From Alphaproteobacteria bacterium (lineage in GTDB: Bacteria; Pseudomonadota; Alphaproteobacteria; JAUHZY01): 64,000 nucleotides of DNA. The stretch is taken from assembly GCA_030425825.1 (NCBI GenBank), contig JAUHZY010000001.1:512551-576550 (forward strand). Direction: 5' to 3'. This document shows positions 9,460 through 55,401 of this stretch, in pieces. Numbering within the stretch: position 1 is the stretch's first letter; each line of letters starts with the position of its first letter. The notes under the pieces were generated by a model that saw nothing but the letters and a program-made list of their open reading frames with translations, had not been told where the DNA came from and searched no databases. The position numbers and the translations under genes are program-made.

Positions 9460-9468
9460 AGTCTGGCT

Positions 9469-11241: not shown

Positions 11242-11333
11242 AGTTTTCCAATATAAAAAATAAGTTGACAGCTTTTGTGTTTTGATCTAAAAAGGATACA
11301 AATAAGAATCATCAAAATAAATCAGGGCTGGGA

Positions 11334-11603
11334 ATGACACTAGAAATGACAAGGCAATCTGACGTAAATCAATTTTTCTCTAATATTGGTATGGGAACAC
11401 GACAGGATGGTTTTGATAAGCCTTTAGTCGACCATATGATGGATGTCGTTGGCGGTTTTTTTGCAGATGATCAAGCACAAAAAGCACAAATTCAACTGGC
11501 ACAAAATGACAATAAACCTGCAATTTTTGAAGAGCTGTCACAAACAAGAAAGCAGACAGCAGGATCAGAATTTTTTAACACAAATATAAAGTCTAACGGA
11601 TAA
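11334..11603 (+). CDS. small hypothetical protein (89 aa)
   Basis: ORF within the co-directional cluster. Confidence 0.35.
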   Translation: MTLEMTRQSDVNQFFSNIGMGTRQDGFDKPLVDHMMDVVGGFFADDQAQKAQIQLAQNDNKPAIFEELSQTRKQTAGSEFFNTNIKSNG

Positions 11604-11615
11604 AGGAAATAAAAA

Positions 11616-13511: not shown

Positions 13512-13523
13512 AGGAGTTATAAA

Positions 13524-14039
13524 ATGCATTCAGATAACCATCAAAAGGCACAAGAATTTATCGTTGGTGTAGGGTATAAGCCCAGTGTGGATCTAACAGA
13601 AAAACTAGAACAGTTTCTAGGTGATTTACCAACAAGAAATGGAAATGAAGTTTTAGAGCGTGAAGGTGTTCGCTATATAATTCGTGAGGGCGTTGAAGAC
13701 GTTGCTGGTAACACAGTTTCAACAGTTAAAAAGTTTGATAAAGGAAGCCTCACTGAAGAGTATCGTTTTACTAATCAGAAATTGGCTGAATACAAGATCT
13801 ATGAAAATGAAAACACGCTAGAATCTTTTAAAATTGATGCTGATGGAAATTGTCAGTTTGCTCAAAATGGTCAAAAACTGATCTTTAAAACATCAGGGGA
13901 CTACGTTATTTCCAATCGTGTTGTTGCACACAATGAACCATCGACTCTGTTTGAAGAAATCAAAGAAACAGGTGCCCGTTATGGTCTTGATGTTGAGGCA
14001 GGTTTCATAAATCACGCTAAAGAGCAAGTTAATGGATAA
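13524..14039 (+). CDS. hypothetical protein, paralogous repeat family (171 aa)
   Basis: EEYRFTNQKLAEYKIYENENTLE motif shared with neighbouring genes. Confidence 0.5.
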   Translation: MHSDNHQKAQEFIVGVGYKPSVDLTEKLEQFLGDLPTRNGNEVLEREGVRYIIREGVEDVAGNTVSTVKKFDKGSLTEEYRFTNQKLAEYKIYENENTLESFKIDADGNCQFAQNGQKLIFKTSGDYVISNRVVAHNEPSTLFEEIKETGARYGLDVEAGFINHAKEQVNG

Positions 14040-15177
14040 TCAACTGACACGAGAAGAAAAAACATTCATGCGGTTTATTAACCACCATAACCTGCGTGAG
14101 TTCCATCGTGTCGCATTAAATATGTTTGGCTTAAGAAGAGACCCAAAGATCAAACAATTTTTAATTGATTTAGCTGACAGAGGTTACAAAACGCATGCGC
14201 GTGAAGGTGAGAATGGAAAGAACACAATTACTTTCAAGCATGGAGATGAAGAAATCATGTTTGAAAAGCAAGAGCATGGCTTGCTTGCTGAATTAAAAGA
14301 AAAAAAGCCAGTGCCGCGTGTTTTCCAAAAACTATCTTATACAAAATATGACGATCAGCTTGTTGATTCATTGGACGATTTTTTATCAGCAGATGATTTA
14401 AGTATGCTCGGCGATAAAATAAGTAATGCAGAAGGATTTATCGTCAGAAAAACATATCTGCCCGAAGCATATCAAAATAAAACAGCATTTTTAACAAGAA
14501 CAAAAAAGGGCGATAAAACAGTCGTAAGAAATGTTTTTGCCCTGTATCATGATACAGGAACAAATGCTATTGTTAAAAAAGCAATGGGGTCTCGCCGTAC
14601 TTTTTTCAATGAAGACCAAAGCATTGTTGACGTTTTTTCAAAACCTATTAACAAAAAGAATGTGATCGTTCTTTTTCAATATAAAGAAATTAATGGGCAG
14701 AAACATCTTAAGTCATGCCAGATTATGATCAAGGACCCTGTTTCGGGAAAAACCTTGATGTCATTGGATGCAGTTAAAAACAAGTCTCTGGAAAGCTTGT
14801 TAAGCAGTGCAAAGCAACAAAAATGGCGTGATGAACTATTGCGCGGCGCCGCGTTTTCAAACGATGAAAAAGACAAAATTATTGCCCATGCGCAAGAGTC
14901 ATTAGAATTAGTCACTTCTCAAGGCGTTAAATTGCCTTTACCTAAGAAGGTAGAAATGCCTGCTTTTATGAAGGTAGTGGGGGTATTTGTTCTTATGTCT
15001 TTCGGCTTTGCATCTTTTGCAAAACCACAGGTGCAGAAGCTGCCTAAATCACAATCTTATGGGGTTGCTGTGAATGATAATCCTGTCGATATGAAGCTTT
15101 TAAAGGCGGCTTCTTTTGATGGCGCTCATTTCTCTACACAACAAGATAAGCCATCAAGCCAATTTAAGGCGCGATAA
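14032..15177 (+). CDS. hypothetical protein with a C-terminal hydrophobic tail (381 aa)
   Basis: C-terminal MPAFMKVVGVFVLMSFGFASFAKPQVQKLP. Start overlaps the preceding stop codon. Confidence 0.5.
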   Translation: MDNQLTREEKTFMRFINHHNLREFHRVALNMFGLRRDPKIKQFLIDLADRGYKTHAREGENGKNTITFKHGDEEIMFEKQEHGLLAELKEKKPVPRVFQKLSYTKYDDQLVDSLDDFLSADDLSMLGDKISNAEGFIVRKTYLPEAYQNKTAFLTRTKKGDKTVVRNVFALYHDTGTNAIVKKAMGSRRTFFNEDQSIVDVFSKPINKKNVIVLFQYKEINGQKHLKSCQIMIKDPVSGKTLMSLDAVKNKSLESLLSSAKQQKWRDELLRGAAFSNDEKDKIIAHAQESLELVTSQGVKLPLPKKVEMPAFMKVVGVFVLMSFGFASFAKPQVQKLPKSQSYGVAVNDNPVDMKLLKAASFDGAHFSTQQDKPSSQFKAR

Positions 15178-15178
15178 G

Positions 15179-16720
15179 ATGGACGCAAGAATTAAAAAGA
15201 TTGTTGCGATAGAAAAAGCAAACCCAAAAGCTGTTTTCTTTGATGACACGCCAGCGGAAATCACAACGGATTTTGAGAACATATTGTGGGAACACGGTAT
15301 GTTGGATGTGTTCAAAAATGCTGAAAAATACCTGGTAACTTCGCTGTTCGATCAAGAAGACGATGCAATTGCTGAATACGAATATAACAACGTGCCATTT
15401 TCTAGCATTTTCCCTGACGAAGATAACGACACAGATGCCCAAGTAGTGTCAGTACGCGACAAGAAGTGGCCAGAAGGCATGCGTGTTCTGTTGCGCTTTC
15501 AAGGAGATGATTTAGATTATATTCATTTGAAGCGTAGCGATGGAAACAAAGCCTATGCTATGCGTGATAACAAGGAAAGCGGATGGATGTTCAACGAATT
15601 CATGCGCCCAGAAACAACAGGACTAAGCGCTGTTTATCAGTTTTCTCCAGAGGGAGGCGTGACGTCTTATACTTTTTTTGATGAAAAGTCTCTTATGCTG
15701 GCGACAGAAAAATATACTTTTGATGGGGACAAGCTATCGCTGGAAGTAGATGGGAAGTCATATAGCATCGAGCATGATGCGCAAGATGCTACTTATTTCA
15801 ATGCAGATACATTGTACAAAGTTGAAGATATCAAGGCGAACAGTTATGTTTTGAAAGCGTTTGCTGATACAGCGCGAGGCCTTAATGTTCAAAGGATCGC
15901 TGCTGGCGTCCAAGAAACATATTCTTCTGTTGCGCCTTTAAAAGGCATAATCCCTGAAGATGACATTGCTTACATGGAAAAAATCAATGTTACAGGGCCG
16001 CTAAGCGTATTAAAAATCAGTGCTGCCTATTCTTTTGGCATCACGATCAAGGGAATGCAAGATGGCGCTGCGTTCACATATGAATCTCTGTTCTCGCCAG
16101 ATTTGAGGGTGGAAAGTTTTAGAGAGATAAAAGGTGAAAATGTATATCGTCTTGTTAAAAAAGGTGATTCTGGTCATATAAAAGAAGAAATTCAGCACGC
16201 TATTGTGAAGGGAAATTCAAAGCTTGATTTTTATTATAGGAAAGAAGGGACATCACAAAACTTGCGCTATGTTCTTTTTGATCTTAGCGGTATTCGTTCT
16301 CCGGTGACATTCTCTTATGATGGAAGTGACGTGACGGAAAAAATATCACAAAAAAGAGCGCAATGGCAGAAAGGTTTTGAAGCTTTTACCTCAAAAAAGG
16401 AGGCCAAAGAGCTTGGTGATGAGATGTATAAAATGCTGGTTGATAAGAAAGATCGCATGGTAAAGAAAAGGCGCAATATCATAGAGTATGTCAAAGGAGC
16501 GAATGGTTTTTTAAGGCCACTTGCCCTGTTCATCGCCATGATTCCAGCAATGGCAGCCTTCGGAAAAGCGAAAGCGCAACCTTTGCCTTATAAGCAGCCC
16601 GTTATCAAAAATGTTTTAAATGATAATACGCCACATATTATTGGTCTTGATGAAGTAGGGCGCTCAGGAGTCGCATATTTTGATGTTAAAAAAGGATATG
16701 AAAATGTTTACAGCAAATGA
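15179..16720 (+). CDS. hypothetical protein, paralogous repeat family with a C-terminal hydrophobic tail (513 aa)
   Basis: KYTFDGDKLSLEVDGKSYSIEHD motif. C-terminal FLRPLALFIAMIPAMAAFGKAKAQPLP. Start at 15179 is chosen because it abuts the upstream stop; the ORF-track start at 15116 would overlap the previous gene. Confidence 0.5.
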   Translation: MDARIKKIVAIEKANPKAVFFDDTPAEITTDFENILWEHGMLDVFKNAEKYLVTSLFDQEDDAIAEYEYNNVPFSSIFPDEDNDTDAQVVSVRDKKWPEGMRVLLRFQGDDLDYIHLKRSDGNKAYAMRDNKESGWMFNEFMRPETTGLSAVYQFSPEGGVTSYTFFDEKSLMLATEKYTFDGDKLSLEVDGKSYSIEHDAQDATYFNADTLYKVEDIKANSYVLKAFADTARGLNVQRIAAGVQETYSSVAPLKGIIPEDDIAYMEKINVTGPLSVLKISAAYSFGITIKGMQDGAAFTYESLFSPDLRVESFREIKGENVYRLVKKGDSGHIKEEIQHAIVKGNSKLDFYYRKEGTSQNLRYVLFDLSGIRSPVTFSYDGSDVTEKISQKRAQWQKGFEAFTSKKEAKELGDEMYKMLVDKKDRMVKKRRNIIEYVKGANGFLRPLALFIAMIPAMAAFGKAKAQPLPYKQPVIKNVLNDNTPHIIGLDEVGRSGVAYFDVKKGYENVYSK

Positions 16721-17645
16721 TGCAGAACAAATCTTGGTCAAAGCAGGGTTTGATATGCAAGAACCTTATTCTGAATTGAATGACTTTATTGCTTGTGAAG
16801 GCTTTAAAAAAATAACAGTTGGCGACCTTAATGGTATTGATGACATTATTTTAAAGCATCGCGCAGAAGGGTACGGTGTTGTTGTCAAATACACGCCAGA
16901 CCAAAAAGGTTTTTGCGCGATACGCAATTATGATGATGGCAGAAAGCAAGAATATCGTTTCGGACACGATGGCAAGGCATTAGGCTTTGAGTATTCTGAA
17001 AACAATAAAGTGACAGCATATTTGATTTGCTCGAATGAAGATGATGATGACTTTAGGCTTGGTCAACAGACACTGGATGACACAATCGTGCCGCCACGCG
17101 ACAATTCGTATTTGTTTGAATTTAAAAATGAAAAAAATGGAGAAGAAGCGATTTTCTTTGTTTCGGAAGGCAAAAAAGAACCAGACGTTATTTCATTAAA
17201 ACAGAAAAACTATCAAGTTGATTATGGTCCTAATGGCGAGCTGTGGAATTTTGACTTAAAGAAGAAAGACAGAACATTCCCTGTTGTTATCAAAAATGGT
17301 GAAGCTGTCAGCGTTAGGAAAGCAGGATCAAATCTTAGTGAGGCTTTGTATGATGCAGAATGCGCAGCACATCGATTAAAAGACCTAGGTATTAGAATGC
17401 CGCAGAGCTTGAATCAGAACATTTTTGCTTATGTTTTTAATGGGTTAGTAAATCTTGTGCGTCCAAAATCTGCGATGACAAGTGTGCTTGTCGTAGGAGC
17501 ATTTAACGCAAATGCCACACGCGTTGAAATGCCTGAAATATCACAAGGTATTGCTTGCCAAGCATATGATCAAACGTCACAGCAAGATAATGTTCAAGAT
17601 GCAAAATCTGTCAATTATCCCATGTCACGCGATCGTACTTTGTAA
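16698..17645 (+). CDS. hypothetical protein, paralogous repeat family (about 315 aa)
   Basis: EYRFGHDGKALGFEYSENNKVTAY motif. The start (16680, 16698 or 16704) is ambiguous. Confidence 0.45.
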   Translation: MKMFTANDAEQILVKAGFDMQEPYSELNDFIACEGFKKITVGDLNGIDDIILKHRAEGYGVVVKYTPDQKGFCAIRNYDDGRKQEYRFGHDGKALGFEYSENNKVTAYLICSNEDDDDFRLGQQTLDDTIVPPRDNSYLFEFKNEKNGEEAIFFVSEGKKEPDVISLKQKNYQVDYGPNGELWNFDLKKKDRTFPVVIKNGEAVSVRKAGSNLSEALYDAECAAHRLKDLGIRMPQSLNQNIFAYVFNGLVNLVRPKSAMTSVLVVGAFNANATRVEMPEISQGIACQAYDQTSQQDNVQDAKSVNYPMSRDRTL

Positions 17646-17673: not shown

Positions 17674-18183
17674 TTAGATCAAGCCATAATACATTGCTAA
17701 ATGTTCAAGGGCCAGGCGCAGTGTTGTCATACCTTCGATTTGGGCTGTGCGTCCTTTGCGTCCTTTCAAAGTGGCCCAATCACCCGCAGTATCTTCTAGA
17801 CAACAAACATGTATCAAGATAGGAGACAATGCGCGCCCTATATCTCGGATTGTTGTGCGAAAGCGTTCTTGTGCTTCTAGTCGTGACTCGGTTTCTGATC
17901 CTTGGCTGCTTGCCAGGCGTCCTGTCATAAGTGTTTTATAGCTTGCCGTCATTTTGGGCGATAAGCCTGCATAAAGAAAATCAGCATGCAGTTTTTTGCC
18001 GGCTTCATATTGAAACTTTGTAATTTGGTCGCGGCGGAAATAGCGTTCTAATGGCGCAGATGTCATATTTCTTGCGCGGCTTTGACCATTTTTAGGGGTC
18101 TCTACAATCATCTCAAAATGTTGTGCCATATATGCGCTGCCGTAATCATTTGCGTGAGATTGTATATGGGGTGTATGGGACAT
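17674..18183 (-). CDS. hypothetical protein (169 aa), phage-like early region
   Basis: ORF in a minus-strand block that also contains an XRE regulator. Confidence 0.4.
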   Translation of the reverse strand: MSHTPHIQSHANDYGSAYMAQHFEMIVETPKNGQSRARNMTSAPLERYFRRDQITKFQYEAGKKLHADFLYAGLSPKMTASYKTLMTGRLASSQGSETESRLEAQERFRTTIRDIGRALSPILIHVCCLEDTAGDWATLKGRKGRTAQIEGMTTLRLALEHLAMYYGLI

Positions 18184-18241
18184 TTCATTCTCCTTTTGGT
18201 TTCGTCTTCAGATGCCAGCATGGCTTTGTTATGTGCGGGGT

Positions 18242-18835
18242 TTATGCCTTTTTAATATCAAAATCTAACTCGCGGACCATGGGGTAGTGCTTGCGAATGA
18301 TTAAAAGGAGCAAGTCCCCGTAATTTGTTTGGCACCACCGGCGGTTTAGGTCTTTATCAAATTGTAATACGGCATTTTCACCTGTGATTTTCAAATGTGC
18401 TTTTTGCAACCAGCTGCGAAACTTTGCGATTTCTAAATGCTCGAGCAAGTCGCGTTTCCATGGTTCAGAAATGCTTTCAGGTTGTATGCGGGTTTGATGG
18501 ACTTGGCAAGCTTCCACAATTTTGCCAACAGTGGGCCAGCGATACGTTGTGTTTTCTTTTACAACGTCTCGCCAACCTTGACGGAGCGCGTCATGAGGGA
18601 TATGCGAAAGGGCCTCAATATACGCGTTGGCGATAATGGCAGATTGCTGATTCAATTCTTTTTCATCAGCCATGATAGGGGGGTAATACATAATCAGCAT
18701 TTCAAGCAAAACAGTATCCCAAATTTTTTGCAGTTTTTCTTTGTCCAAGCAAAGAGATTCTAAAAGACGTTTTGTCGTCATAAGATCAGGTTTATAGCGG
18801 ACCCTATGTGATTTTGCGGTAGATTTCAAAGTCAT
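18242..18835 (-). CDS. hypothetical protein (197 aa)
   Basis: ORF only. Confidence 0.4.
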   Translation of the reverse strand: MTLKSTAKSHRVRYKPDLMTTKRLLESLCLDKEKLQKIWDTVLLEMLIMYYPPIMADEKELNQQSAIIANAYIEALSHIPHDALRQGWRDVVKENTTYRWPTVGKIVEACQVHQTRIQPESISEPWKRDLLEHLEIAKFRSWLQKAHLKITGENAVLQFDKDLNRRWCQTNYGDLLLLIIRKHYPMVRELDFDIKKA

Positions 18836-19376
18836 TGATTTCCTCCTTTACGGCATGATCTGTATTTATATTTTTATAAGTATCTTCTTTATGTATTGTG
18901 CGTTTGTTTGTGTGTGAGTTTGTGTTTGATGACGTGTTCGAGCGCCTTGCCATTGCTGTCATTGGCGCAGTTGATAATCTGTGTGAATCATTGTGTGCAG
19001 GTTTGAAAAGGTGATCCTTATAATCTGTAATTGTTAAAACCGTTCCCTGCACTTTGTGTGCGTCTAAACTTGCAAGGTTGCTTTGTTGAATGCGCTTTAA
19101 AAACATGCGTGCTTTGTGCTCGGTAATATCAAATAAAGAAGCAATAAGGCGCGATGTAATATAAAGTTGACCTGCTTTTAGCTGGATGACGCGTGTCGAA
19201 GGCTGGGTAAGAGAAATCTCAAAGTCTTCCCAAGCCGCCATTTCGCATATCCACCCCCAAATTGCAGATTCGGTCATGTCTTTGAAAATGGGATTATACC
19301 ATTTGTCTCGAAATGTCTTTGTGAAACCACGACGTGGATAATAAGGAGGTGGTAACGGCTTTTTATAATACATCAT
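18804..19376 (-). CDS. hypothetical protein with a possible winged-helix DNA-binding segment (190 aa); possible phage replication-associated protein
   Basis: GQLYITSRLIASLFDITEHKARMFLKRIQQ resembles HTH segments of phage replication initiators. The match is weak. Confidence 0.35.
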   Translation of the reverse strand: MMYYKKPLPPPYYPRRGFTKTFRDKWYNPIFKDMTESAIWGWICEMAAWEDFEISLTQPSTRVIQLKAGQLYITSRLIASLFDITEHKARMFLKRIQQSNLASLDAHKVQGTVLTITDYKDHLFKPAHNDSHRLSTAPMTAMARRSNTSSNTNSHTNKRTIHKEDTYKNINTDHAVKEEINDFEIYRKIT

Positions 19377-19382
19377 CTGCCC

Positions 19383-19625
19383 CTAGTCGTTGCGTTCGCG
19401 CAGTAATAAGTCATAACCCAGTGCATTTACGCAGGCTTCAAAGTTCATCAAATTAGGCGTGCCATTCCCGTGTTCCCAAATCAGAACGGCGTTTCTATTA
19501 AGCCCTGCATGTTTTGCCAGTCTCTCTTGAGAAACATTCTTTTTTTTGCGAAGCTCATGAAGCTTGCGTATAAGAGGGTGGTTACTTTTGCAGATACCGC
19601 GCTTTTTTGTGTTTTTTTGAGTCAT
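19383..19625 (-). CDS. XRE-family (Cro/CI-type) HTH transcriptional regulator
   Basis: KKNVSQERLAKHAGLNRNAVLIWEHGNGTPNLMNFEACVNALGYDL is a canonical HTH_XRE pattern. 80 aa. Confidence 0.65.
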   Translation of the reverse strand: MTQKNTKKRGICKSNHPLIRKLHELRKKKNVSQERLAKHAGLNRNAVLIWEHGNGTPNLMNFEACVNALGYDLLLRERND

Positions 19626-19884
19626 TTAAGACCTCCTCTGTTTGATAGGTTAAGTAGTCTCGCCAGTGGTGGCGATAGTTAAGAAAAGATTTTTTTAATC
19701 CTTCTTTTAGTAGATCTTCTTCTTCAGGAGACAAACAGCATTTCTTCAAAAAGCGTAAATTATGAATATTTTTTATGATCTCAGATTTCCACATTTTTGC
19801 CATAACTTGAGATTTATAGCCTTTGTGTTGCCCGCTTAGGTGGCGTGGAATGCGTCCGTCATATTTTAAACTTAATGTGTTCAT
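19582..19884 (-). CDS. hypothetical protein (100 aa)
   Basis: ORF overlapping the XRE gene start. Uncertain. Confidence 0.3.
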   Translation of the reverse strand: MNTLSLKYDGRIPRHLSGQHKGYKSQVMAKMWKSEIIKNIHNLRFLKKCCLSPEEEDLLKEGLKKSFLNYRHHWRDYLTYQTEEVLNDSKKHKKARYLQK

Positions 19885-20188
19885 ATCCTTCTTCCTTGAG
19901 CAACAAATTGCAATAAATGCAACCTGCGCGTCAAGAGAAAATGACTATGACCGTATAAGTTTCAAAATGTAAATAATAAAGAATATTTGTTACTTATATA
20001 TTAAATATCAACTACTTAAAGTTAAGACTTTATTGTGATGTTTAAGATGTTTTCCTATAAAAAGCAGGGGAACTTTTTTTATACAATTTCATTTTGCGCA
20101 ATTTATAATTGTATAAATTTCATAGTGAGATAAAATATTTCTTAATTTGAGAATTCATGTTCTTGGATAGGTTTGCTGGGAATAGGGG

Positions 20189-21649
20189 TTATAGACCTTG
20201 TAGTAATTGTAAAATAGCATTCTCGTGTTGCGCAGCAAATGACAGGTTATTGATTTGCAGCTGACTGCGTGTTTGAAGTGATAGGTTGTTGGCTGCTTCT
20301 TCTTCTAAATCGGCAAGAGTCAGTTTGTCACCGGCTTCCAGGTTGACGTTAGACACCTGGTCAGCAAACGAAAAGCGATTTTGCAAAATGCCATAATCAG
20401 ACACAAAATAAGCTTCTGCTGCATCAATACGGTCAAGCGCACCATTAATTTGATTCAATGTCGTTTGTATGTTTGCATCTGTAAAATCGACAGTCCGTAA
20501 AGATAAAATCACAGTGCGTAAATCAAAATTATCAATAAGGTGGTTCGTATCTTTGCTAAGTCGTATATCAATGTGATCCTCGTACTCAAGCGAAGCATCA
20601 ACAATGTCGGGGTTTCCATAGGCCGCAATATAGTTGTCAGGAACATTCCCTGCCATGTCTACATATCCATTGGGCAGATCGCCACGAAATGCTGCAACCA
20701 AGTTGTTTGCTTGTGAATGTTCTGGTGCATCAAGAATATTACCACCATTATAAAGCTCTGTAATCTCAGCAGGCGTAAGGTCGGTTGAAAACAGATCAAC
20801 TTCGGGAATTGTTCCCATATGGCGTCTTGTCGCTTGCGTCGTGCTCATGCCTGTCATTTCTGTGCTTATGCCCGCGCCGGCAGGGATAACTTGGGGCGCG
20901 CCAACCTGGACACCATTACGGTAATAAGTAACTGTGGCACCATTTCTAACAAAGCTCATCATATGTAGGTTGCCATCATCCACGCCAACATCATTGGGGA
21001 AAACAACAAAGCTTGATCCGCCGTTAGCTCTGTAATAAATATCATCGCCGGCCATATAAATAAGATAGCCGTTAGCGTTGTTGTTAGATAAAGGGTAGGA
21101 TTGGTTTGCAGCATTAGGCTCATACGACATCCACATATTGACAGTGTTTGTTGTCCCTAAGTCAATCGGATTGCCGCCATTGTTATCCACACGCACATAG
21201 TCATCAACGCCATCATATTGTGGGCCACCAACATCGTCTGTTAAAAGGTTTATGCCATCTTTGTTTGAATCAAGTAAAATATCATCATATTCACGCAGCA
21301 ATTTGTTCGCATCAGGTTCTAGCAGTACAGCATCAGCTTCGCTGAGATTAAGCGCTTGTGTTGCTAGCCCTTTTACAGCTTCCATCACAGTTCTTGCTGC
21401 GGTAATGCCATTTTGTGTGACTTGTAATGTTGAAATGCCTTGGCCGATAGCGTCTTTGCGGCTCAGCATAAAGCTGGATGTATCGTATTGTGTCTCTGAC
21501 AAAAAATAGGCAGGGGCGTTGTCTAGAACCTCTGCAACTTTTTTTCCTGTCGCAAGACGTGCATCAGTTCTGTCGATATATTGTTGTGTTCTTCGAAGGG
21601 CAATTAGTGCGTTACGAGATGCCTCACTTAATCTGATTGAATCAACCAT
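20189..21649 (-). CDS. fliC: flagellin with a LamG_3 (concanavalin-like) module replacing the hypervariable domain
   Basis: Flagellin N-terminus (NALIALRRTQ...RLATGKKV...DNAPAY) and C-terminus (LTLADLEEEAANNLSLQTRSQLQINNLSFAAQHENAILQLLQGL). The central segment YDGVDDYVRVDNNGG...NTVNMWMSY...LHMMSFVRNGATVTYYRNGV...FSTDLTPAEITELYNGGNILDAPEHSQANNLVAAFRGD is homologous to RTX residues FDEVDDYIRLDGG...AQFRDG. GAGG RBS. Confidence 0.8.
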   Translation of the reverse strand: MVDSIRLSEASRNALIALRRTQQYIDRTDARLATGKKVAEVLDNAPAYFLSETQYDTSSFMLSRKDAIGQGISTLQVTQNGITAARTVMEAVKGLATQALNLSEADAVLLEPDANKLLREYDDILLDSNKDGINLLTDDVGGPQYDGVDDYVRVDNNGGNPIDLGTTNTVNMWMSYEPNAANQSYPLSNNNANGYLIYMAGDDIYYRANGGSSFVVFPNDVGVDDGNLHMMSFVRNGATVTYYRNGVQVGAPQVIPAGAGISTEMTGMSTTQATRRHMGTIPEVDLFSTDLTPAEITELYNGGNILDAPEHSQANNLVAAFRGDLPNGYVDMAGNVPDNYIAAYGNPDIVDASLEYEDHIDIRLSKDTNHLIDNFDLRTVILSLRTVDFTDANIQTTLNQINGALDRIDAAEAYFVSDYGILQNRFSFADQVSNVNLEAGDKLTLADLEEEAANNLSLQTRSQLQINNLSFAAQHENAILQLLQGL

Positions 21650-21694
21650 TTAAACCTCGTCTAAAATAAATCAAAATATACCTTGTGTCTGTCA

Positions 21695-21710
21695 TGCATA
21701 TTTTGTGCCA
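21695..21710 (-). promoter_or_regulatory. sigma-54 type promoter (-24/-12) for fliC1
   Basis: Minus-strand sequence TTGGCACaaaatATGCA matches TGGCAC-N5-TTGCA, about 45 bp upstream of the fliC1 ATG. Confidence 0.45.
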
Positions 21711-21756
21711 AAGTTTCTTATGTGTTTTATGCGTTATCTTGTTTGGAAGAGGGCGC

Positions 21757-23238
21757 TTATGACCTGCCCCCAAACAAGATATCAATCAAGTTCTGTATTG
21801 ATCGGTTTGAGTTCGTCATTGAGAAAATGCTCAATTGCTCACGTGTCTCAAGAGCCAATCTATTCGCAGATTCTTCTTCTAAATCTGCCAGCGTCAGTTT
21901 ATCGCCTGCTTCTTCATGCGTGTTGATCAGATCTTCTGTGAACTCAAGGCGGGTTTGTAATAATGCAAAGTCTGTTGCAAAGCTGGCAGCAGTGCTGTCA
22001 ATCCTATTCAGGGCAGCGTCAAGTCCATCAAGTGTGGCGTCTAAACCTGCGGAAGAAAAATCAACACCCACAATCCCTAATGAGAAAGTTCGCATATCAA
22101 CAGAGTGAATTGTGTGTGTTGTGTTGTCACTAAAATCAACGATCAGATCTTCTGCATACTCACCTGCTGTCGGCGCATCTGTGTTGGCCCAGAAATCAGA
22201 TAAGTTTGCATTTTGAATCGTGCCATCATTTCCATTTCCTGAGCTGTCATATGCTGTCGTACCATTTCCTTCGTCTAATGGCCAATAACCTTCTAGGCTG
22301 GATCCTGGAATAGCGCCACTGGTGTAAAGTGTTGCGACTTCTGATGGTGTAAGCGCTTCATTCCAGAGGCCTGTATTGGACATAGACCCCTCAAAAAATG
22401 GCCCGCCTGGCTTCAAGGCACCAATTGTCATATCAACAGTGGGATTGTGCATTGATGTAATGGGGTCATCGTCGTTCATAACAACAGCAGCCTCTGCGCC
22501 ATCAACATACAATCTTAAGTCACCATTATCCCAAGTGAAGCCTACATGGTGCCAATTGCCGTCATTAATAGGAACGGTTGTCTCATAGTTCTTGCTTGTT
22601 CCATAAGTGCCATCACCACTAATCAAGACATTAAGCTCACCAGATGCTGTCAGGCCTAGATAAAATCCTCTTTGATTTCCACCTTGTTCATAATGGCCTG
22701 TCATATATGATGATGTGTCTGTTGTTTGTACCCAAGTAAAGTTTGATAAATCGGTTAAGCTATGGCCAATATCTCCAACGTTTATGTGATCATTTACTCC
22801 ATCAAATGTTGCGACAAAATCTTCTTCAACAAGTAAGTTTGTGCCGTTCATATGCGTATCAGCAATAAGGTTGTTATACTCACCCAGTAGTTTATTAGCT
22901 TGCGCTTCTAGGATGGTTCTCTGTGCTGCAGATGCATTGCGCGCTTCTTCAGCCAGACCCTTGACCTGCTCAATGATGGCGCGACCACTGGTCAGGCCAT
23001 GCTGCGTTGCTTTCAACGTACTGATCGCTTGATCAATATCGTCTTTGCGTTTCAGTAGGCTATCCGCCTTGTCATAAAGGCCCTTCGCTTTGAAGTACTC
23101 AACAGGACCGTCCAGAATGTCGTTGACCTTCTTACCTGTCGCCAGGCGCTTCTCAACAGTCGCTGTCAGATCCTTGATCTGTTGATGGTTCAACAAGCTG
23201 TTTCTCATCGCGGAAGTGAGCTTAATGTCATTGATCAT
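21757..23238 (-). CDS. fliC: flagellin with a LamG_3 module replacing the hypervariable domain
   Basis: Start MINDIKLTSAMRNSLLNHQQ preceded by a GGAGGTGGG RBS. The ORF-track start at 23292 lacks an RBS. Flagellin N and C termini (LTLADLEEESANRLALETREQLSI). The insert FDGVNDHINVGD...LYVDGAEA...LEGYWPLDEGNGTTAYDSSGNGNDGT is homologous to the first LamG module of the RTX protein. Confidence 0.8.
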   Translation of the reverse strand: MINDIKLTSAMRNSLLNHQQIKDLTATVEKRLATGKKVNDILDGPVEYFKAKGLYDKADSLLKRKDDIDQAISTLKATQHGLTSGRAIIEQVKGLAEEARNASAAQRTILEAQANKLLGEYNNLIADTHMNGTNLLVEEDFVATFDGVNDHINVGDIGHSLTDLSNFTWVQTTDTSSYMTGHYEQGGNQRGFYLGLTASGELNVLISGDGTYGTSKNYETTVPINDGNWHHVGFTWDNGDLRLYVDGAEAAVVMNDDDPITSMHNPTVDMTIGALKPGGPFFEGSMSNTGLWNEALTPSEVATLYTSGAIPGSSLEGYWPLDEGNGTTAYDSSGNGNDGTIQNANLSDFWANTDAPTAGEYAEDLIVDFSDNTTHTIHSVDMRTFSLGIVGVDFSSAGLDATLDGLDAALNRIDSTAASFATDFALLQTRLEFTEDLINTHEEAGDKLTLADLEEESANRLALETREQLSIFSMTNSNRSIQNLIDILFGGRS

Positions 23239-23470
23239 GACCCACCTCCATATGCTAGAGCAACATCTCGCGATGAGCTTATGATACGCCACGCGCTACG
23301 CGCTTCGGCTATGAGGGCGGAAGTGAGCTTAATGTCATTGATCATGACCCACCTCCATACGTTAGAGCAACATCTCGCGATGAGATGATGATACGCCACG
23401 CGCTACGCGCTTCGGCTATGAGGGCGGAAGTGAGTTTAATGTCATTGATCATGACCCACCTCCATATGTT
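23205..23470. repeat. tandem direct repeat of about 107 bp x3 (about 2.5 copies), spanning the fliC2 RBS, start codon and first 8 codons
   Basis: gcggaagtgagcttaatgtcattgatcatgacccacctccatatg...cgcttcggctatgagg recurs starting at 23211, 23318 and 23424 with a few substitutions. Confidence 0.85.
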
Positions 23471-23811
23471 GTGTGCAGACACAAAACAGTACGCAGGAGC
23501 AAGCCCATGGCATCTGCCATGTTCTCTTTCCTTCTAAACTGTCTTGCGCACATCTTCAGCACGTTATTCTCCAATTTTCTGCACGAGATCTACCAACTAG
23601 AACTCGATACCGAGTTCTATTCAGAAGCAGTGCCAAAATGCATTTTTGGGTGTTTTTTTTGGTGTGCAGAAAAATGGGAAAATGTATTTGTGGATTTTAA
23701 TGCAACATCACGTGTGGCTTTGATGTGCTATGTAGATTTATTTTCTGATGGTTGTTTTTCAATTGCACGCTAGTTGCGTGTGCCGCTGTAAGGGGGCGCT
23801 GCGTGTTATTT

Positions 23812-24519
23812 TTATAGATAGCTGAATTGGGCGATAATACGTCCTTTGACCTGAATATTTTCAGGTGTACAGCAGTAATCTTCATAATTTGGGTTGTTGC
23901 AAGAAACCTTAAGGGTGCTAGATGATTGGTTTGTTAGAAGTTCTAGGCGCTTTATACGATAACCAACATCATCCCAAACAAGAAAAAAACCAGGAGGGCT
24001 GGGCTGGCAGTTAAGCGTATCAACCAACACCTTTGTACCCAAGGGAAGCTGAGGCGACATGCCGTCATCTCGGACTGTCATCATAAATAAGTACTTTAGG
24101 CTTGTCTTCGTTCTATTTTCAATAAAGTTAAGAGGAAGTTGCCAGTGGTTCACAGCATTGCAAGAGGGGTCTTCTAGATCAGAAAAATCGTTGATTTCCT
24201 GGATGGTTATCATTTTCTGATAAGGGTTTTCAAAGGCAACAGCCTCTTCACGAACAGCATTGTTGTTGGCTTCAAAATAGCTGGTGCTAATATTAATGCC
24301 TGCATGATGCATGACATCTGGAATGGAGGCGTCTATAAAAGCAGCGATAGAGCCCATTTCATGTAAGCGCAATTGTCGGTTGCCTTTAAGCATTCGAGAG
24401 ACTGCAGATGGTTCTATGTTGAGGTGTTTCGCAAGGTCAGCCTGTGTTTTACCTTGGTTTTTCAGTTTTGTTTTAAACCATCTTGCGTCCATAAAAACTT
24501 CCCATGATTTGTTGCTCAT
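23812..24519 (-). CDS. cI/LexA-like repressor: N-terminal XRE HTH plus C-terminal S24 peptidase domain
   Basis: GKTQADLAKHLNIEPSAVSRMLKG (HTH). The C-terminal GMSPQLPLGTKVLVD...VGYRIKRL pattern is typical of S24 self-cleaving repressors. The start may instead be at 24492 (MDARWF). Confidence 0.7.
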   Translation of the reverse strand: MSNKSWEVFMDARWFKTKLKNQGKTQADLAKHLNIEPSAVSRMLKGNRQLRLHEMGSIAAFIDASIPDVMHHAGINISTSYFEANNNAVREEAVAFENPYQKMITIQEINDFSDLEDPSCNAVNHWQLPLNFIENRTKTSLKYLFMMTVRDDGMSPQLPLGTKVLVDTLNCQPSPPGFFLVWDDVGYRIKRLELLTNQSSSTLKVSCNNPNYEDYCCTPENIQVKGRIIAQFSYL

Positions 24520-24742: not shown

Positions 24743-26476
24743 TTAGAACTTATACGTCAAACCCATAGAAAAGACTGGGTATATATCAGCGCCAGCAATA
24801 TCTTCTTCGATTTTTGCTTCTTCAGCTGCCAAGCTTGCTTGGAAAGTTGGATCATTTGCGGCTGTTCCGTTGCTTGTGAAGGCAATATCAGCAGAGCCGC
24901 TGAACAAAACCCCAAGGCGACTGTTAAAGCTAAGCCCTGTGCCAAGAATGCCATTGTCATAAAATGTTGAGTCAAAGCCAACGCCAACATATGGCGCAAA
25001 GTCATCAAAGCTTGCTTTGCCGTTTAAGGTGCCAACTTCTGATGCTGTATAAATTGTGCCACCCAGGTCGTATGTGCTGCTTGGGTCGGATATTAAGGTT
25101 GCTTCATTGCCGTTCCAGTAAATTCCTGCAGACATGTTAAACCCTGATTTAAAGGGATGCCACTCTGCCACGACACCAAGGTTAGAAAGGTCTAGATCCA
25201 AGTCGTAATCGACATCATCATAAGATTCGCTCATTGAGTGGCTAAATGCGTTTGCACCTGCGCGTAAAACCCACCTTGGACTGATATGTGCCATCAAGTC
25301 ACCACCAGCGCCGAGCGTTCCCACTGAAAGTGCTAGGGCATAACGTGTGTCGAAGTCTTCATCGCTTTCGCCATACTCAACGAATTTAACATCTTCTGTT
25401 TCATACTCATATTTCTTAATGCTTAACTGAGCGTGCTTTGGAATATGGTCTAGGCTTTGAACCTTTTTCACACGTCCCTGTGCATCACGGTAAAACTCAT
25501 GACGACCTTGCCCTTCTTTGCTGGGCATCAAAACAGGCTGTGAAGGTAATTGGCGAGAAGGCTGCAACATGGGCGCATAAGCAGGATGCATGGCCACGGG
25601 AGGGGCATAACCTGGGCGCATTTGATGAAATTGACCGCCATACATGTCAGTTTGTGGCGGCATTTGTTGTTGTGGTTGAGATTGCCTTTGTTGATAAGGG
25701 TCTTGTCGATAACCATAATCTATCTGCGGCTGTTGGGCGCGATGCTGTGTCACATCTTGGACGATTTGTGTCGTGTTCATTGGTTGATCAGACGCACCTT
25801 GCTTTTTCCATGCAGGCTTTGCTGATTCGACATACTGATTTTGAGGTTGGTAAGAGGGCTTTTGGCGTACTTGCAGCGGTGATCCCGTATTCATTTGATG
25901 CATAGGTGGGTTTCCTGACATTGCATCTGGACGCTGTAATCTTTGGTCGCGTTGCTCAACAGCTCTGTTCATCCAGTTTTTACGCTGCGTAGGCGGCACA
26001 TAAAAAGGTTTTTGAGATGTGTTTGTGCGCTCAGAAAATCTTAAATTATTAGATGAGGATGATCTTTTAAACTCTTGAAATTCTTGTCGACTTCTCTCGA
26101 TATAGCTGTCCACTTTTCTTTGAGGTGAAGTGTTTGAAGCAAGTGCCGTATTCGCAGATGAGTACGGCACTTTATTAGGGCGCTCAGATATGGGCAGTGT
26201 GTTAGAAGCATCTGGGCGCGCCGAATATGTTTGTATGTTTTTTTGATAGCTAGGCGTTGGATAGCCTGTGTTATATCCTTGTGCTGTGGCGATATCATCA
26301 CAAACCAATAAAAGGAAAAAAGCGATAGCAACAACTCTGGAAATGCTTATTCCAGCAGAAGATATTCTTTTAAGCTGTTGAAGTTTAAGGAACAAATTGA
26401 TCTCCAAGAAATAAGAGGCATGCGATATGAAATTCTGGATGAGAAAGAAGATACTAAAAAACCGACCTTTAGGCAA
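24743..26476 (-). CDS. secreted outer-membrane beta-barrel protein with a long P/Q-rich linker
   Basis: C-terminal alternating beta pattern ending GLTYKF with a terminal Phe. The signal-peptide-like segment KRISSAGISISRVVAIAFFLLLVCDDIATAQG is internal to the ORF-track model, so the likely start is a TTG near 26395 with a GGAG RBS. Q/P-rich middle region. Confidence 0.5.
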   Translation of the reverse strand: MPKGRFFSIFFLIQNFISHASYFLEINLFLKLQQLKRISSAGISISRVVAIAFFLLLVCDDIATAQGYNTGYPTPSYQKNIQTYSARPDASNTLPISERPNKVPYSSANTALASNTSPQRKVDSYIERSRQEFQEFKRSSSSNNLRFSERTNTSQKPFYVPPTQRKNWMNRAVEQRDQRLQRPDAMSGNPPMHQMNTGSPLQVRQKPSYQPQNQYVESAKPAWKKQGASDQPMNTTQIVQDVTQHRAQQPQIDYGYRQDPYQQRQSQPQQQMPPQTDMYGGQFHQMRPGYAPPVAMHPAYAPMLQPSRQLPSQPVLMPSKEGQGRHEFYRDAQGRVKKVQSLDHIPKHAQLSIKKYEYETEDVKFVEYGESDEDFDTRYALALSVGTLGAGGDLMAHISPRWVLRAGANAFSHSMSESYDDVDYDLDLDLSNLGVVAEWHPFKSGFNMSAGIYWNGNEATLISDPSSTYDLGGTIYTASEVGTLNGKASFDDFAPYVGVGFDSTFYDNGILGTGLSFNSRLGVLFSGSADIAFTSNGTAANDPTFQASLAAEEAKIEEDIAGADIYPVFSMGLTYKF

Positions 26477-26512
26477 TCTGTTTTTCCAGACAATGCCGCA
26501 TCAAGATAACCC

Positions 26513-27085
26513 TTAACGTCCGTATTTCTGAATAAACCCCTCTGCTTGCATGATTTTATGATATTGTGAAGGGGAAAGATTATTGTAATTCAATTGTATA
26601 TCAATGTTTTCAATGCCGCTGTTAGTGTACTCGGTGTATTTTGTTGGTAGCATAGACCCAGATTCGTACTCCACTTCGATTAAACTGTCGACAGTTGATA
26701 GAAGGAGATGTCCTGAATCAAGCTCTTGAAAGTTACCAATTTCTAAACGGTAAAGCGTATAATGTTCATCAGAGCTGTTGCCTTGAATCTCAATCAGGCT
26801 TTTTCTTCGCATCACACCATTTGTTGTATCAAATTTAGAAAATCGAAAGAAATCTTCTTTCTGACCATCGCTTTCGGTAATGCTTGTCTTTGAATCTTGG
26901 CAAGAGTCTAAGAGAGATTTTTCAAAAGGGCGTATAGAGGAAGCATTGTCGCTAACGCTTTGAGAGCTTTCAGAAACAAGCTTGGAAGCATTGCAGCCCA
27001 TCATTAGAATGATGCTTGTCAGGCCACCCCATAATATTGATGTATATTTCATTTTCGCACCTTTTTTCTTTTTTAATAGCATCAA
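26513..27085 (-). CDS. putative lipoprotein
   Basis: MKYTSILWGGLTSIILMMGC has lipobox LMMGC. The likely start is the Met at 27052. Confidence 0.5.
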   Translation of the reverse strand: MMLLKKKKGAKMKYTSILWGGLTSIILMMGCNASKLVSESSQSVSDNASSIRPFEKSLLDSCQDSKTSITESDGQKEDFFRFSKFDTTNGVMRRKSLIEIQGNSSDEHYTLYRLEIGNFQELDSGHLLLSTVDSLIEVEYESGSMLPTKYTEYTNSGIENIDIQLNYNNLSPSQYHKIMQAEGFIQKYGR

Positions 27086-27317
27086 TAATCCTATATGGCA
27101 ACAATTTTGACTTGTTTTACTGCCTTATGATAGGGGTGCGCTTTGTTTAACCGCGTTAATAGATATTTCCTTGAAGGTTTATATAAAACAAGCAGACCAA
27201 AAAATCACAAAAGTTAATGTGCTTAAAAAATAGTCATATTATCTCTTTTCCTATTCCGAGAAATATGTTATAGTCCATGACCCATATTGGTTAAAAGATG
27301 TTTGAGAGAGAGTTTTT

Positions 27318-27989
27318 ATGGAACAAGACGAGCCACTAACAGAAAAAGAGATGCGTAAACTCATGCGCCTTTTAACACGCCTTAACAAACCTAAGAAAAA
27401 AGAACCGGCATTATCAAAAAAAGAGATGCGTAAGCTAAATCATCTTTTGGCATCATACCGCAGGCTTGAAACCTCTTTGGTCGCAGGTAAGTATGGGGTT
27501 GCGCCAATCAAATCTCTGCACCCAAAAGCAATTATAGGGTCTTTGGACAATGTTTTTCCTTTTTTAATTCATGGTAGGGAAAAAGCACAAGATTTACGCC
27601 AGGGTCACTTTAAGGGCGCTTTTCATGCTATAGAGGTATCCCATCCTAACCTTGTAACCGTAATGATCGATTCGCTGAAGCGTACAAACTATGAGGGGCT
27701 TGCAAGAATGTTAGCGCTGTCTTTAAATATAGATCGCCGAGGACAGCGTGAAAAAACAGTTGAGGCTTTGAAGGGAGCCTTGGCAAAGAGTGAAGGATGG
27801 AATAAAGAAAGCAAAGCGGCTGTGCAAGCAGGATTATTTCACTACCATAATAACCACAAAAAAATAAAAGTTAGAGACTTGCCGGCAGATAAGTCAGAGG
27901 TAACGATCAGCGAAGAAGCTGAAATGACAGGTGTTAAAGTTGAAGCTTCTCTTGTCGTTGGTGATAAAAAGAATACGCGTACACATTAA
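27318..27989 (+). CDS. hypothetical protein (223 aa)
   Basis: ORF only. Confidence 0.45.
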   Translation: MEQDEPLTEKEMRKLMRLLTRLNKPKKKEPALSKKEMRKLNHLLASYRRLETSLVAGKYGVAPIKSLHPKAIIGSLDNVFPFLIHGREKAQDLRQGHFKGAFHAIEVSHPNLVTVMIDSLKRTNYEGLARMLALSLNIDRRGQREKTVEALKGALAKSEGWNKESKAAVQAGLFHYHNNHKKIKVRDLPADKSEVTISEEAEMTGVKVEASLVVGDKKNTRTH

Positions 27990-28040
27990 CTGTATTGCGT
28001 AAGTAAAATAAACATAAAAACATTAAATGGCACAAAATAA

Positions 28041-31000
28041 ATGAGTAAAAAACAGATTAATTATCTAGAGGTTCTAAGAGATAATGGTTTCTCGCAAGCC
28101 TTTATCGATGCTTTTTCTAAAAACCATGATATCAAAAAAAACGACGACTTTTTTGCGGCAATGAAAGCATCTGTTCTTGAAGACAGTGCTCAAGAAAATG
28201 ATGCTTACTTGCAGCTTTTTAACAGAGCTTTTTCACAAAATGGGCGTGACTTTGAAAAGTTTCTAGGTGTTTCTTATGACGCGGTTGGCGCGCAAGATAA
28301 GGGACGTCTATTCTTGGCACTTTTAAAGCGAGAATCGCGAAAAAAGCATGTGTCGCCAATTATTCGGGATACAATTCATAAATTGGTTTCAGGTTATCAG
28401 CGTCATGTTGAAAGTCCAAGGGTTTCTGCTCATTTGCCAGAGGGCATAGCCCATGACTTGTCGAAGAAAACAGCAGAGGAGCTGCGCGATATTATAAAAA
28501 AAGTAACACAAGACCAGATCGAAAAAATAGATTTCATCGAAAATACTATCATAGCGTTTTCGGGTGATATTGTCTCAGCATATCGTGCTACTGGCCTTTC
28601 AGAAGAAGAACGCCAAGACTTTGGTACACTTATTTATTCTTTCGCGTTTTCTGAATATTCGTATATTGGTGTTGATTTTTCTGAAAACTCGTTCGTGCGT
28701 GAAAAAATCTCAGCAACACTTTTTAAGCAGCTGCCTCTTTTCCTTAAATCTGACAATAAAGTCATGGGAACTTCTCACACACGCTTTTTTATGAACTTTT
28801 TAAAAACAAAATTAAATAACACGAATGGCGATGTAGATATGGGCCTGTATCTAGAGTCTTCTGCAGAAAAAATAGGGGAAGAAGCGGCGGGCCATTTTTT
28901 AGAACAAAGCCGTAAAACAAGCGGTAATTTCTTAAGTTACCTAGACGAAATTGAAAGAGATGAAAGTGCAAAACATGAAGGCTTGCACGAAAGCTTTATT
29001 GCAGCAGTTGTAGAAACAGCGACGAAATCACTAGAATCAAGCGCGTCTTTTGTTAACTCTAGAAAAGCGTTAGGGTTTTTAGAGTTTACCTTGTCGACAA
29101 AGTATATTGATGATGAAGCAAGACTTAAGCTTGTGAATGCGATTTTTAATAACTTGTATCATGTGACAGAAGAAAAACTAAAAAGACAACCACAAGACAA
29201 TAACGGAGATCCACTAGCGCATTTGAACAATCAAAACGTTCGTATGCTAGAGCGTGCTGCTGTTTCATTTTATGGGCGCTACTTTGCAGAAGAGCTCCCT
29301 CTGTTTTTAGAAGCATTTTCGCGTCATAAAAACCCTGATACGAGAAAGCAAAATGGCTGGAAAAAGAAAGACTTTGATGAAAAGGTAGAGCTGCTTACGA
29401 CAACCCTTGAAACAGTTGATATGCTGCGCCATAACGCACGTGATAAAGACACGCGTCTTTATTTAGATTTAGAGCTCTCTTCGAATGATGGGTATTGTGA
29501 TGATGTGATGGCAATTATCGACTTCATAAGGGACAGAAATAAGGGCACAGCAAAACAACAAAAGCCTTGGAGTGCTTTAATGGGTATTAAGCATGAGGTG
29601 AAAACATCTAATATAAAAGATAATGCATTGGCAGGGCGCTTGGAAAGAGCGTTCATCATTTCGCTTGAACGGGCACATGATCACAAAGAATCTGTTGACG
29701 AGGTGATGAAACGGATTGGGCATCTTGCAAAAAAAGACAAAGACGATTTGCAATCTTATCAGAATCTGTGGGGTAAATTAAAAAAAGGTATAATAAACAA
29801 CGACTCGTACGATGATGTGCAGCGAGGGGAAATGACCTCGGTTTTGAAAAATATTGAAAAAATATACGCACGACAAAGTGCTTTTCATTATTCGCGTCGC
29901 TATGAATTGCTTGGTGATGCCATTGGCCTGCGTGTGGGTCATTTTGATAAATCATCAGCGTTTTATTTAGAGGTTTTTAGAAAATATCTACAGGCTGCAG
30001 AAAAAAACAAAAGGTCTTGGCAAGCAAAGACATTGCCTTTGGTTGCAAATGATTTTGTTAATCGTTTGCATTCTGTTTTATCAGAATCACGGACAGTGGC
30101 AGATCCGTTTTATGTAAAAAAACTATCAGGTGCTTTGAAAAAAACGATCAATTCTTTGTACGCGTTCTCAACAATAAATAATAAGAACCTAGATGAATTG
30201 CGTGATTATACCTTAGGAAAAGGATTGAGTGCCAGAAGAAGGCGTATTGAAAATGACTTTAAGATTTTGTTCACGGACAAACCTTCGACATTAGCCTTTG
30301 TGAATCATTTGGGAATAGAGCATGCTTTCAAAGCAGAGGCATCTTCTGAACAAGTACAAGAGGCTTGGGATAAAGTTTTTCAAGAGAAAGACTTTGAAGA
30401 TATGAAATCTTCTGGGGGGTTGTTTGTCAAAATGTATATGGCATCACAAATGGATGTATCACTTAAAAGCACTTTTGAGAGTATTGCTTTAGAAATAAAG
30501 AAATATCTTTTGAAGGGAAAAGAAGATTCGACGAATGATAAGTTTTTCCATATTTTTGAAAAATTCCTTATCGCAGCAATTCACAAAGATTGTTCAGACG
30601 AAGTACAGGATATTCTAGAGTCTTTAAGAGGCAACAAATATAAACATTTAACACCTTTAAAAAACATCGTTGTCAAAGTAGATGATGCGTTGCAAAACAA
30701 GGTAGAGACAAAGCAAAACGGATTAGATGTTTTAGGTAAAGCTTTTGCGCACTCTGACAAAAGCATCGCTGGTGGCTTGAGTATGGGCGGCCTGTATTTT
30801 CTGACAGAGTTATCACCACCGCGTTTTAAAGGAAACAAAGTAAGCGATATAACTCAAGCAGTACAAAGATTTGCTGCGCGCGCTTTTAACGGGGTTCTTC
30901 CAAAACCACTTCGCCTGGATGTTGCTTTTAAAAATCCGGCTGATCAGGTGGTTCACAATAAGGTATCTCTTAACACTGAAAACCCAATCGTTTTACCAGA

Positions 31001-31070: not shown

Positions 31071-31074
31071 CGTG

Positions 31075-33210: not shown

Positions 33211-33318
33211 GAGGGCACTCTAACACTTTGTCTTTCAGAAGGCCAGAGGCAGGTTGCCGATAGAAATGTTGCTTTATGGATAATGTTAGGTTAAAAGGGT
33301 TTTGAAAAGGAAAATAAA

Positions 33319-55400: not shown

Positions 55401-55401
55401 C

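Follow-up and report, generated by a model that had tools for sequence, protein, structure and literature searches.

In a 64-kb stretch of an alphaproteobacterial genome (64,000 nucleotides [nt] of contig JAUHZY010000001.1; hereafter the window, to whose positions all coordinates refer unless another locus is named), a pair of flagellin genes lies between a gene encoding a small XRE-type regulator and a gene encoding a repressor related to lambda cI and LexA. The locus spans positions 17674-24519 and has eight genes, every one on the minus strand. We read it, at a probability of about 0.58, as a mosaic of three parts whose adjacency is specific to this lineage: a domesticated repressor, two flagellin paralogues, and the relic of a prophage early operon. 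The evidence is that the repressor has lost the serine of its peptidase-like domain together with the cleavage site, that its orthologues in related genomes stand among unrelated genes, and that the flagellins belong to a larger family of paralogues with apparent traces of recombination next to them.

A cI/LexA-type repressor without its active site

23812..24492, minus strand: repressor of cI/LexA fold, predicted to be non-cleavable, 226 amino acids (aa), with an N-terminal XRE helix-turn-helix (HTH) domain and a C-terminal S24-like pseudo-peptidase domain; the open reading frame (ORF) reaches ATG 24519

The full ORF would encode 235 aa, and the N termini of homologues, like the database copy of the protein (P0001, 226 aa), point to ATG 24492 as its true start. 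The N-terminal domain matches HTH_3 of Pfam (E value, 2.8e-06), with the HTH helices at 3-63 in the AlphaFold2 model. The C-terminal domain matches phrog_4 (4e-19) and the Ehrlichia-named NCBIfam model ECH_1013_TF_S24 (1.6e-16), and its score against the S24 peptidase family PF00717, 21.3 bits, is under the cut-off of 23.3. The model, built from 40 sequences, reached a predicted local distance difference test (pLDDT) score of 90.1. Its top Foldseek matches in the PDB were the lambda-186 hybrid repressor, full-length lambda cI, 186 CI, and LexA, and the C-terminal domain also matched that of UmuD'. Sequence searches of the PDB with the repressor and three of the operon proteins described below returned nothing significant.

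An exhaustive HMMER search found 1,644 relatives of the repressor at E <= 0.001. We aligned 154 relatives, the window repressor, and Escherichia coli LexA with MAFFT. In the column of LexA Ser119 the window repressor has glycine, its motif being RDDGMSP against GDSMxP in the family, and in the column of Lys156 it retains the lysine (YRIKRLE); serine and lysine are both present in 125 of the 156 aligned sequences. The linker IQEINDFSDLEDPS (the IQEINDFSDL region) contains no Ala-Gly site; the family consensus here is VRxxxGxG, and intact members have an Ala-Gly or a Gly-Gly/Gly-rich cleavage segment. Because both the serine nucleophile and the Ala-Gly site are gone, the protein should not be open to RecA-stimulated autocleavage, and as far as its residues can tell, it is not self-cleaving. 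An earlier note on this DNA had described an S24-type, self-cleaving HTH repressor. The HTH domain and the cI/LexA fold stand, the HTH profile is matched clearly and the S24 profile below threshold, and the self-cleavage has to be dropped.

Relatives of the repressor and their neighbourhoods

In a neighbour-joining tree, the window repressor falls into a clade with P0126, which is 53% identical, and with P0138/P0277. The two catalytic columns are Gly/Arg in P0126 and Cys/Arg in P0138/P0277; the two closest orthologues also lack the serine, and arginine has replaced their lysine. Judged from these sequences, the active site was lost long ago, and the gene behaves like one of the host. P0126 is found with secF, an HD-domain gene, and ftsQAZ, with a tRNA-Arg gene just upstream, and P0277 with orphan genes and an MCP gene. 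When all window proteins were compared with the two orthologue loci by tblastn, the repressor was the only match, and no flagellin, XRE, DnaD-like, or DUF6456 homologue was found within 10 kb. This comparison covers two related genomes, whose orthologues are 53% and 34% identical to the window repressor. Relatives also carry genes for GapR and an RP005-like protein, and together with the Ehrlichia-named match of the C-terminal domain this hints at an alphaproteobacterium with a small genome.

About 500 nt upstream of P0126, the tRNA-Arg(CCG) gene is followed by a partial tRNA repeat (locus L085, 9394-9560). The arrangement looks like what an integrated element would leave behind after losing everything except its repressor gene.

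The relatives with an intact Ser/Lys pair are repressors of prophages or integrative elements. One of them (P0128, locus L088) adjoins an integrase and a primase gene, and at least 134 stretches in IMG/VR encode relatives of the repressor. On one prophage contig (L150), the repressor gene and a cro-like HTH_3 gene are transcribed divergently, and DnaT-like and primase-helicase genes come after the latter. On another (L130), the divergent arm encodes a weak relative of the DnaD-like protein of the window and then a small terminase subunit. In L130, L095, and L154, this DnaD-like protein had weak phmmer matches among the ORFs transcribed divergently from the repressor genes. In the window, 4.2 kb separate the repressor gene from the XRE gene, both have the same orientation, and the flagellins lie in between. 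Since the regulators are thus co-directional and distant, whereas they are adjacent and divergent in the prophage contigs with intact members, the locus is not organised as an immunity region. The suggestion of the earlier note that a prophage immunity region had captured the flagellins therefore keeps its gene content, as the families are typical of such regions (cI-fold, Cro-like, DnaD-like, and DUF6456), and loses its layout, which is co-directional, with a repressor whose orthologues in two related genomes stand alone.

The flagellin pair and its leaders

21757..23238, minus strand: flagellin 1 (fla1) with a LamG insert, 493 aa; a longer ORF covers 21757-23292
20189..21649, minus strand: flagellin 2 (fla2) with a LamG insert, 486 aa
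23210..23468, minus strand: 107-nt tandem repeat, 2.4 copies, upstream of fla1 (Tandem Repeats Finder, 96% matches, score 483; repeat families D1/D2)
21695..21710, minus strand: candidate sigma-54 promoter TGGCACAAAATATGCA, by consensus match only

Both proteins have the domains of LamG flagellins. Fla1 matches Flagellin_N (7.4e-08) and Laminin_G_3 (8.4e-22) of Pfam as well as NCBIfam flagellin subfamilies, and Fla2 matches Flagellin_N (3.9e-06) and Laminin_G_3 (6.5e-11). The C-terminal regions match NCBIfam flagellin models and the conserved ends of the paralogues; the Pfam Flagellin_C match is weak (E value, 0.059) and restricted to Fla1. From the sequence and the homologues, fla1 starts at ATG 23238 (MINDIKLT). 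The domains and coordinates confirm what had been noticed from the letters alone, a pair of LamG flagellin genes between the XRE gene and the repressor gene on a single strand.

The two flagellins share just 33% identity (tblastn). The source genome, a single contig of 1,662,365 bp, encodes at least six flagellin paralogues (P0006, P0008, P0009, and P0011 to P0013), which have near-identical termini and, as central insert, either a LamG domain or a lactonase-type beta-propeller (PF10282). Tandem flagellin pairs in loci L002 and L005 have housekeeping neighbours; one relative's pair is near genes for ferritin, KpsF, LptCAB, and RpoN, and the other's near those for a Mur ligase and citrate synthase. 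A search of genome contigs with fla1 returned LamG-domain matches only, from unrelated phyla, and a literature search on LamG flagellins found nothing. Among the genes scanned in 17.7-27 kb, neither flaF nor flbT was detected.

The LamG domain of fla2 is 41% identical to a LamG domain of an RTX-repeat protein encoded at 389-2809. This likeness suggests an exchange of domains inside the genome.

Each copy of the 107-nt repeat contains a Shine-Dalgarno (SD) sequence, an ATG, and the first 10 flagellin codons. The repeat yields two upstream ORFs (uORFs) of 35 codons, with starts at 23452 and 23345 (MINDIKLTSA...YGGGS). They end in YGGGS, and each stop codon shares an ATGA with the start that follows. 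The C termini of paralogous flagellins read ...DILFGGGS, and in L005 the tandem flagellin genes have a four-base overlap, which is consistent with an ATGA junction. With these flagellin-like GGGS ends and ATGA overlaps, the uORFs therefore look like collapsed flagellin-flagellin junctions, left by a former tandem array of flagellin genes, and they point to recombination between paralogues as the force moving flagellin genes in the source genome.

Over the start of fla1 (23200-23262), a hairpin is predicted in which the SD sequence and the start codon pair with codons 7-9, GGAGGUGGGU with ACUCACUUCC. Analogous SD hairpins, reaching to about codons 5-9 and made of other sequences, are predicted in L005 (8673-8737 and 9977-10041) and L002 (9977-10041 and 11860-11924); in an alignment of the flagellin leaders, those of L002 are out of register. 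The hairpin may be an element of translational control. Upstream of fla2, the sequence TGGCACAAAATATGCA lies 46-61 nt before the ATG and agrees with the sigma-54 consensus TGGCAC-N5-TTGCW at 10 of 11 positions, a score reached by only two sites in the window, this being one of them. We infer promoters at this locus from such matches, and the sigma-54 site is accordingly a candidate.

A phage-type early operon

19582..19884, minus strand: orphan, first gene of the early operon, 100 aa, with a good SD sequence
19383..19625, minus strand: XRE HTH protein, Cro/cII-like, 80 aa (HTH_3, 2.4e-08, Pfam)
18804..19376, minus strand: DnaD-like phage replication or helicase-loader protein, 190 aa (phrog_2514, 1.6e-10; phrog_186, 6.8e-06)
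18242..18835, minus strand: orphan, 197 aa, its C-terminal part possibly similar to DnaA domain I (DnaA_N, below threshold)
17674..18183, minus strand: DUF6456 protein of the GafA C-terminal/GafZ family (PF20057, 6e-16); the annotated version has 151 aa, from 18129
20078..20117, strand undefined: AT-rich inverted repeat of 20 + 20 nt (I8, 80% complementary) between the fla2 stop codon and the early operon

Being tightly packed or overlapping, the five genes between 19884 and 17674 form one operon. The small XRE regulator of the earlier note is thereby confirmed, and so are its early-region-like neighbours, which are phage-like by their phrog_2514 and DUF6456 matches. The XRE protein matches several PHROG families of repressors and regulators, and the 100-aa orphan matches nothing in Pfam, PHROGs, NCBIfam, or PADLOC. 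The 197-aa protein reaches 20.1 bits against DnaA_N (5.2e-04), under the cut-off of 24.6, with no match to Bac_DnaA_C, and its single-sequence AlphaFold2 model was unusable (pLDDT of 42). The DUF6456 match is nearly full-length (positions 4-135 of the 136 in the profile) and scores 59.2 bits against a cut-off of 26.3. No close homologue of the protein was found among 5.8 billion proteins, and no partner similar to GafY (DnaA domain IV) is fused to it or encoded directly upstream. A tblastn search of 50,697 phage records with the DUF6456 and DnaD-like proteins returned nothing, and IMG/VR scans with the DnaD-like and 197-aa proteins found no relatives.

DUF6456 is the family of the GafA C terminus and of GafZ, which activate or antiterminate the late genes of phages and gene transfer agents (GTAs); GafA directly activates RcGTA, and GafZ is an antiterminator of the Caulobacter GTA cluster (PMC9638019, PMC11150451). 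By analogy, the order of the genes, from XRE through DnaD-like and DnaA_N-like to DUF6456, would resemble a lambdoid early operon with cro, replication genes, and a late activator. We read the operon as a prophage relic.

Further phage genes are scattered over the window: a T4-like TerL gene (39339-40715), a GH108 lysozyme gene (42667-44730), endolysin-like genes, and an SU10-type portal gene (51383-53605). They sit among many orphans, and the TerL gene is 15 kb off, past orphan genes on both strands. The window ORFs scanned included no integrase match, and no structural gene of the RcGTA/CcGTA type was identified in the window. Two stretches consist of repeated two-gene cassettes: in 47543-51547 there are three endolysin-like genes, 44-72% identical to one another, each with a gene of about 160 aa on the opposite strand, and in 54365-59726 three phrog_8741-like genes, 43-61% identical, alternate with two plus-strand genes of about 290 aa.

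The locus is flanked at 7144-17645 and 24743-36185 by extended series of large ORFs, the longest of 1009 aa. They have no Pfam match, apart from a CarO-like porin domain in 24743-26476, and a few also have no PHROG match; they may encode secreted or effector proteins specific to the lineage. PADLOC gave generic HTH matches only and recognised no defence system, Rfam gave no match, and there are no tRNA genes in the window.

Two junctions of the locus are backed by two independent short-read contigs from another data set. One comes from beyond the repressor gene, as seen from the flagellins, and stops in the spacer before fla1, about 270 nt after the repressor stop codon, and the other runs from fla2 through the early operon to the DUF6456 gene. 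Both break at fla1.

Operator and promoter searches

The spacer upstream of fla1 (23239-23811, 573 nt) contains three near-perfect 16-nt palindromes, CAAAAATGCATTTTGG, AACTCGGTATCGAGTT, and CATGGCAGATGCCATG. Palindrome spacing differs between the regions upstream of the repressor gene and of fla1 (N9 versus N4). An exact 12-mer, TGAGCAACAAAT, occurs just upstream of the repressor start codon and of the first operon gene, in opposite orientations, and is not significant: there are 2 matches where 1.1 are expected, a result equalled or bettered in 33 of 100 shuffled sequences. A 12-mer with one mismatch, TGTTTTGTG(C/T)CT, stands beside inverted repeats upstream of the repressor gene and of the first uORF, and its enrichment comes partly from paralogous genes at 54-58 kb. 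The pattern TTGC-N7-GCAA occurs 6 times against 4 expected. The AT-rich inverted repeat at 20078..20117 is a candidate transcript end or operator, and the 10-mer at its core shows no enrichment across the window. Counts of sigma-70 promoter-like and terminator-like sites showed no excess over shuffled sequence. The search for operator-like repeats that the earlier note had proposed gave palindromes upstream of fla1, at most candidate operators, and shared 12-mers at or near chance or confounded by paralogues. Any DNA targets of the two regulators are putative, and we found no evidence linking the repressor to the flagellin promoters.

A proposed mosaic locus and the alternatives

In the mosaic that we favour, the repressor would be a phage-type protein domesticated by the host, probably binding DNA as a dimer through its XRE HTH domain, with the S24-like domain kept as a module for dimerisation or for binding a partner. 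The flagellins would be two divergent members of the family of at least six paralogues and would probably be run by ordinary flagellar controls, fla2 by its candidate sigma-54 promoter and fla1 by its SD hairpin. Recombination between paralogues would have shuffled the flagellin genes, and the 107-nt repeat with its uORFs would be the scar. The relic of the early operon may still act on the packaging and lysis genes scattered in the window.

Several points weigh against this interpretation. Both relatives inspected are distant, and the closest one, represented by a 111-kb NCBI contig with P0007 and P0010, lies outside the comparison. The palindromes upstream of fla1 are near-perfect, and no binding protein can be assigned to them. 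In the stretch from the repressor gene to fla1, the minus strand showed no terminator-like site, and all eight genes are co-directional, which makes co-transcription or local regulation possible. Finally, repressors of the RogA type and activators of the GafZ type are known partners in Caulobacter, and both families occur here within 7 kb, which may be more than coincidence. The presence of two XRE-type HTH genes within 7 kb has little weight alone, XRE being a very common family.

This partnership leads to the main rival, which we kept because a RogA-like architecture is suggestive at so short a distance (4 kb) from a GafZ-family gene. Here the promoter of the operon with the DUF6456 gene at its end would be a target of the non-cleavable repressor; relief of this repression would let the DUF6456 protein switch on, or antiterminate, the packaging and lysis genes of the window, with the flagellins as passengers inserted by recombination. 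RogA consists of an HTH domain and an S24-like domain without catalytic residues and represses gafYZ directly (PMC9632790, PMC11150451), the Pfam match places the window protein in the DUF6456 family of GafA and GafZ (PMC9638019), TerL, portal, and lysis genes are at hand, and the exact 12-mer TGAGCAACAAAT precedes both the repressor gene and the operon. However, that 12-mer is not significant, no GafY-like gene comes before the DUF6456 gene, and the portal is of the SU10 type and the terminase T4-like, with no RcGTA/CcGTA-type gene identified. The repressor orthologues, moreover, have no DUF6456 neighbour, and the likeness to RogA is one of described architecture. We regard such a circuit as possible and less likely than the mosaic. 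Direct control of the flagellins is unlikely. Here the repressor, the XRE protein, or both would have been recruited to switch between the paralogues, possibly together with the production of phage-like particles. The genes adjoin one another on a single strand, the 573-nt region upstream of fla1 has its three palindromes, TGTTTTGTG(C/T)CT lies by inverted repeats both before the repressor gene and before the first uORF, and a precedent is reported in phage-related XRE regulators that control surface structures in Caulobacter (PMC10688885). Yet the adjacency is kept in neither relative examined, the palindromes are unequally spaced, the enrichment of the 12-mer owes something to the paralogues at 54-58 kb, and fla2 has a sigma-54-like site of its own.

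The earlier note had also considered that the locus might be under an SOS- or stress-cleavable repressor of the LexA/cI type, relieved by RecA-stimulated autocleavage. The architecture, the fold, and the retained general-base lysine would fit. Of the catalytic dyad, on whose loss the note had staked this idea, the serine nucleophile is replaced by glycine; the Ala-Gly site is missing, and the orthologues have arginine for the lysine. The sequence contradicts such control, which we consider hardly credible. Somewhat less remote, and still very improbable, is a bistable switch made of the repressor and the GafZ-family activator, which would couple the choice between LamG and beta-propeller flagellins to the production of phage-like particles, with the leader uORFs adding a translational layer.

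The mosaic, if correct, has a corrective value: a cI/LexA-like gene next to flagellins looks like SOS-linked control of motility, and in this case the peptidase domain is dead by its sequence and the relatives do not share the neighbourhood. With this locus, an under-sampled alphaproteobacterial lineage contributes a small clade of cI-fold repressors that are catalytically dead and kept as host genes. Recombination scars that form uORFs, a recurrent SD hairpin, and at least six paralogues varied by their inserts may be of interest for flagellin diversification and translational control.

Comparison with known systems

A close parallel in architecture is RogA (CCNA_00080), the gafYZ repressor of Caulobacter crescentus. 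It likewise combines an HTH domain with a LexA/cI-like S24 domain without key catalytic residues and is likewise a domesticated chromosomal gene of an alphaproteobacterium, and the window repressor has a gene of the GafZ family (DUF6456) nearby. Unlike RogA, the window repressor keeps the lysine, and neither a GafY-like gene nor an RcGTA/CcGTA-type cluster was found in the window; the two proteins are compared by architecture only. The DUF6456 protein itself has a full-length match to the domain of GafA and GafZ, and its gene stands at the end of a phage-type early operon, where a late-gene activator would be. It differs from these activators in being very divergent, in having no GafY partner, and in following replication-type genes, and the likeness is one of sequence only. 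If this very divergent GafZ-family protein still interacts with the repressor, the logic leading from RogA to GafZ would extend past the classical RcGTA-type agents.

Phage 186 CI works in a divergent immunity switch of the canonical kind, under the control of the antirepressor Tum. Like the window repressor, it has two domains and does not depend on self-cleavage for its inactivation, and 186 CI and lambda-186 hybrid chains are among the top structural matches; at the window locus, in contrast, no antirepressor or divergent partner gene is visible. With lambda cI, LexA, and UmuD of family S24, the repressor has in common the fold, the order of domains, and the general-base lysine, and it differs from them by lacking the serine nucleophile and Ala-Gly site and by its sub-threshold Pfam S24 match.

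Some tandem flagellin arrays of alphaproteobacteria are under post-transcriptional control, as in the case of Caulobacter fljK with FlbT and FlaF. The flagellins described here differ from these arrays in their LamG or beta-propeller inserts and duplicated leader uORF units, and flaF and flbT are undetected among the genes scanned in 17.7-27 kb. They resemble them in being several paralogues in tandem, in having a candidate sigma-54 promoter, and in the structured 5' region over the SD sequence.

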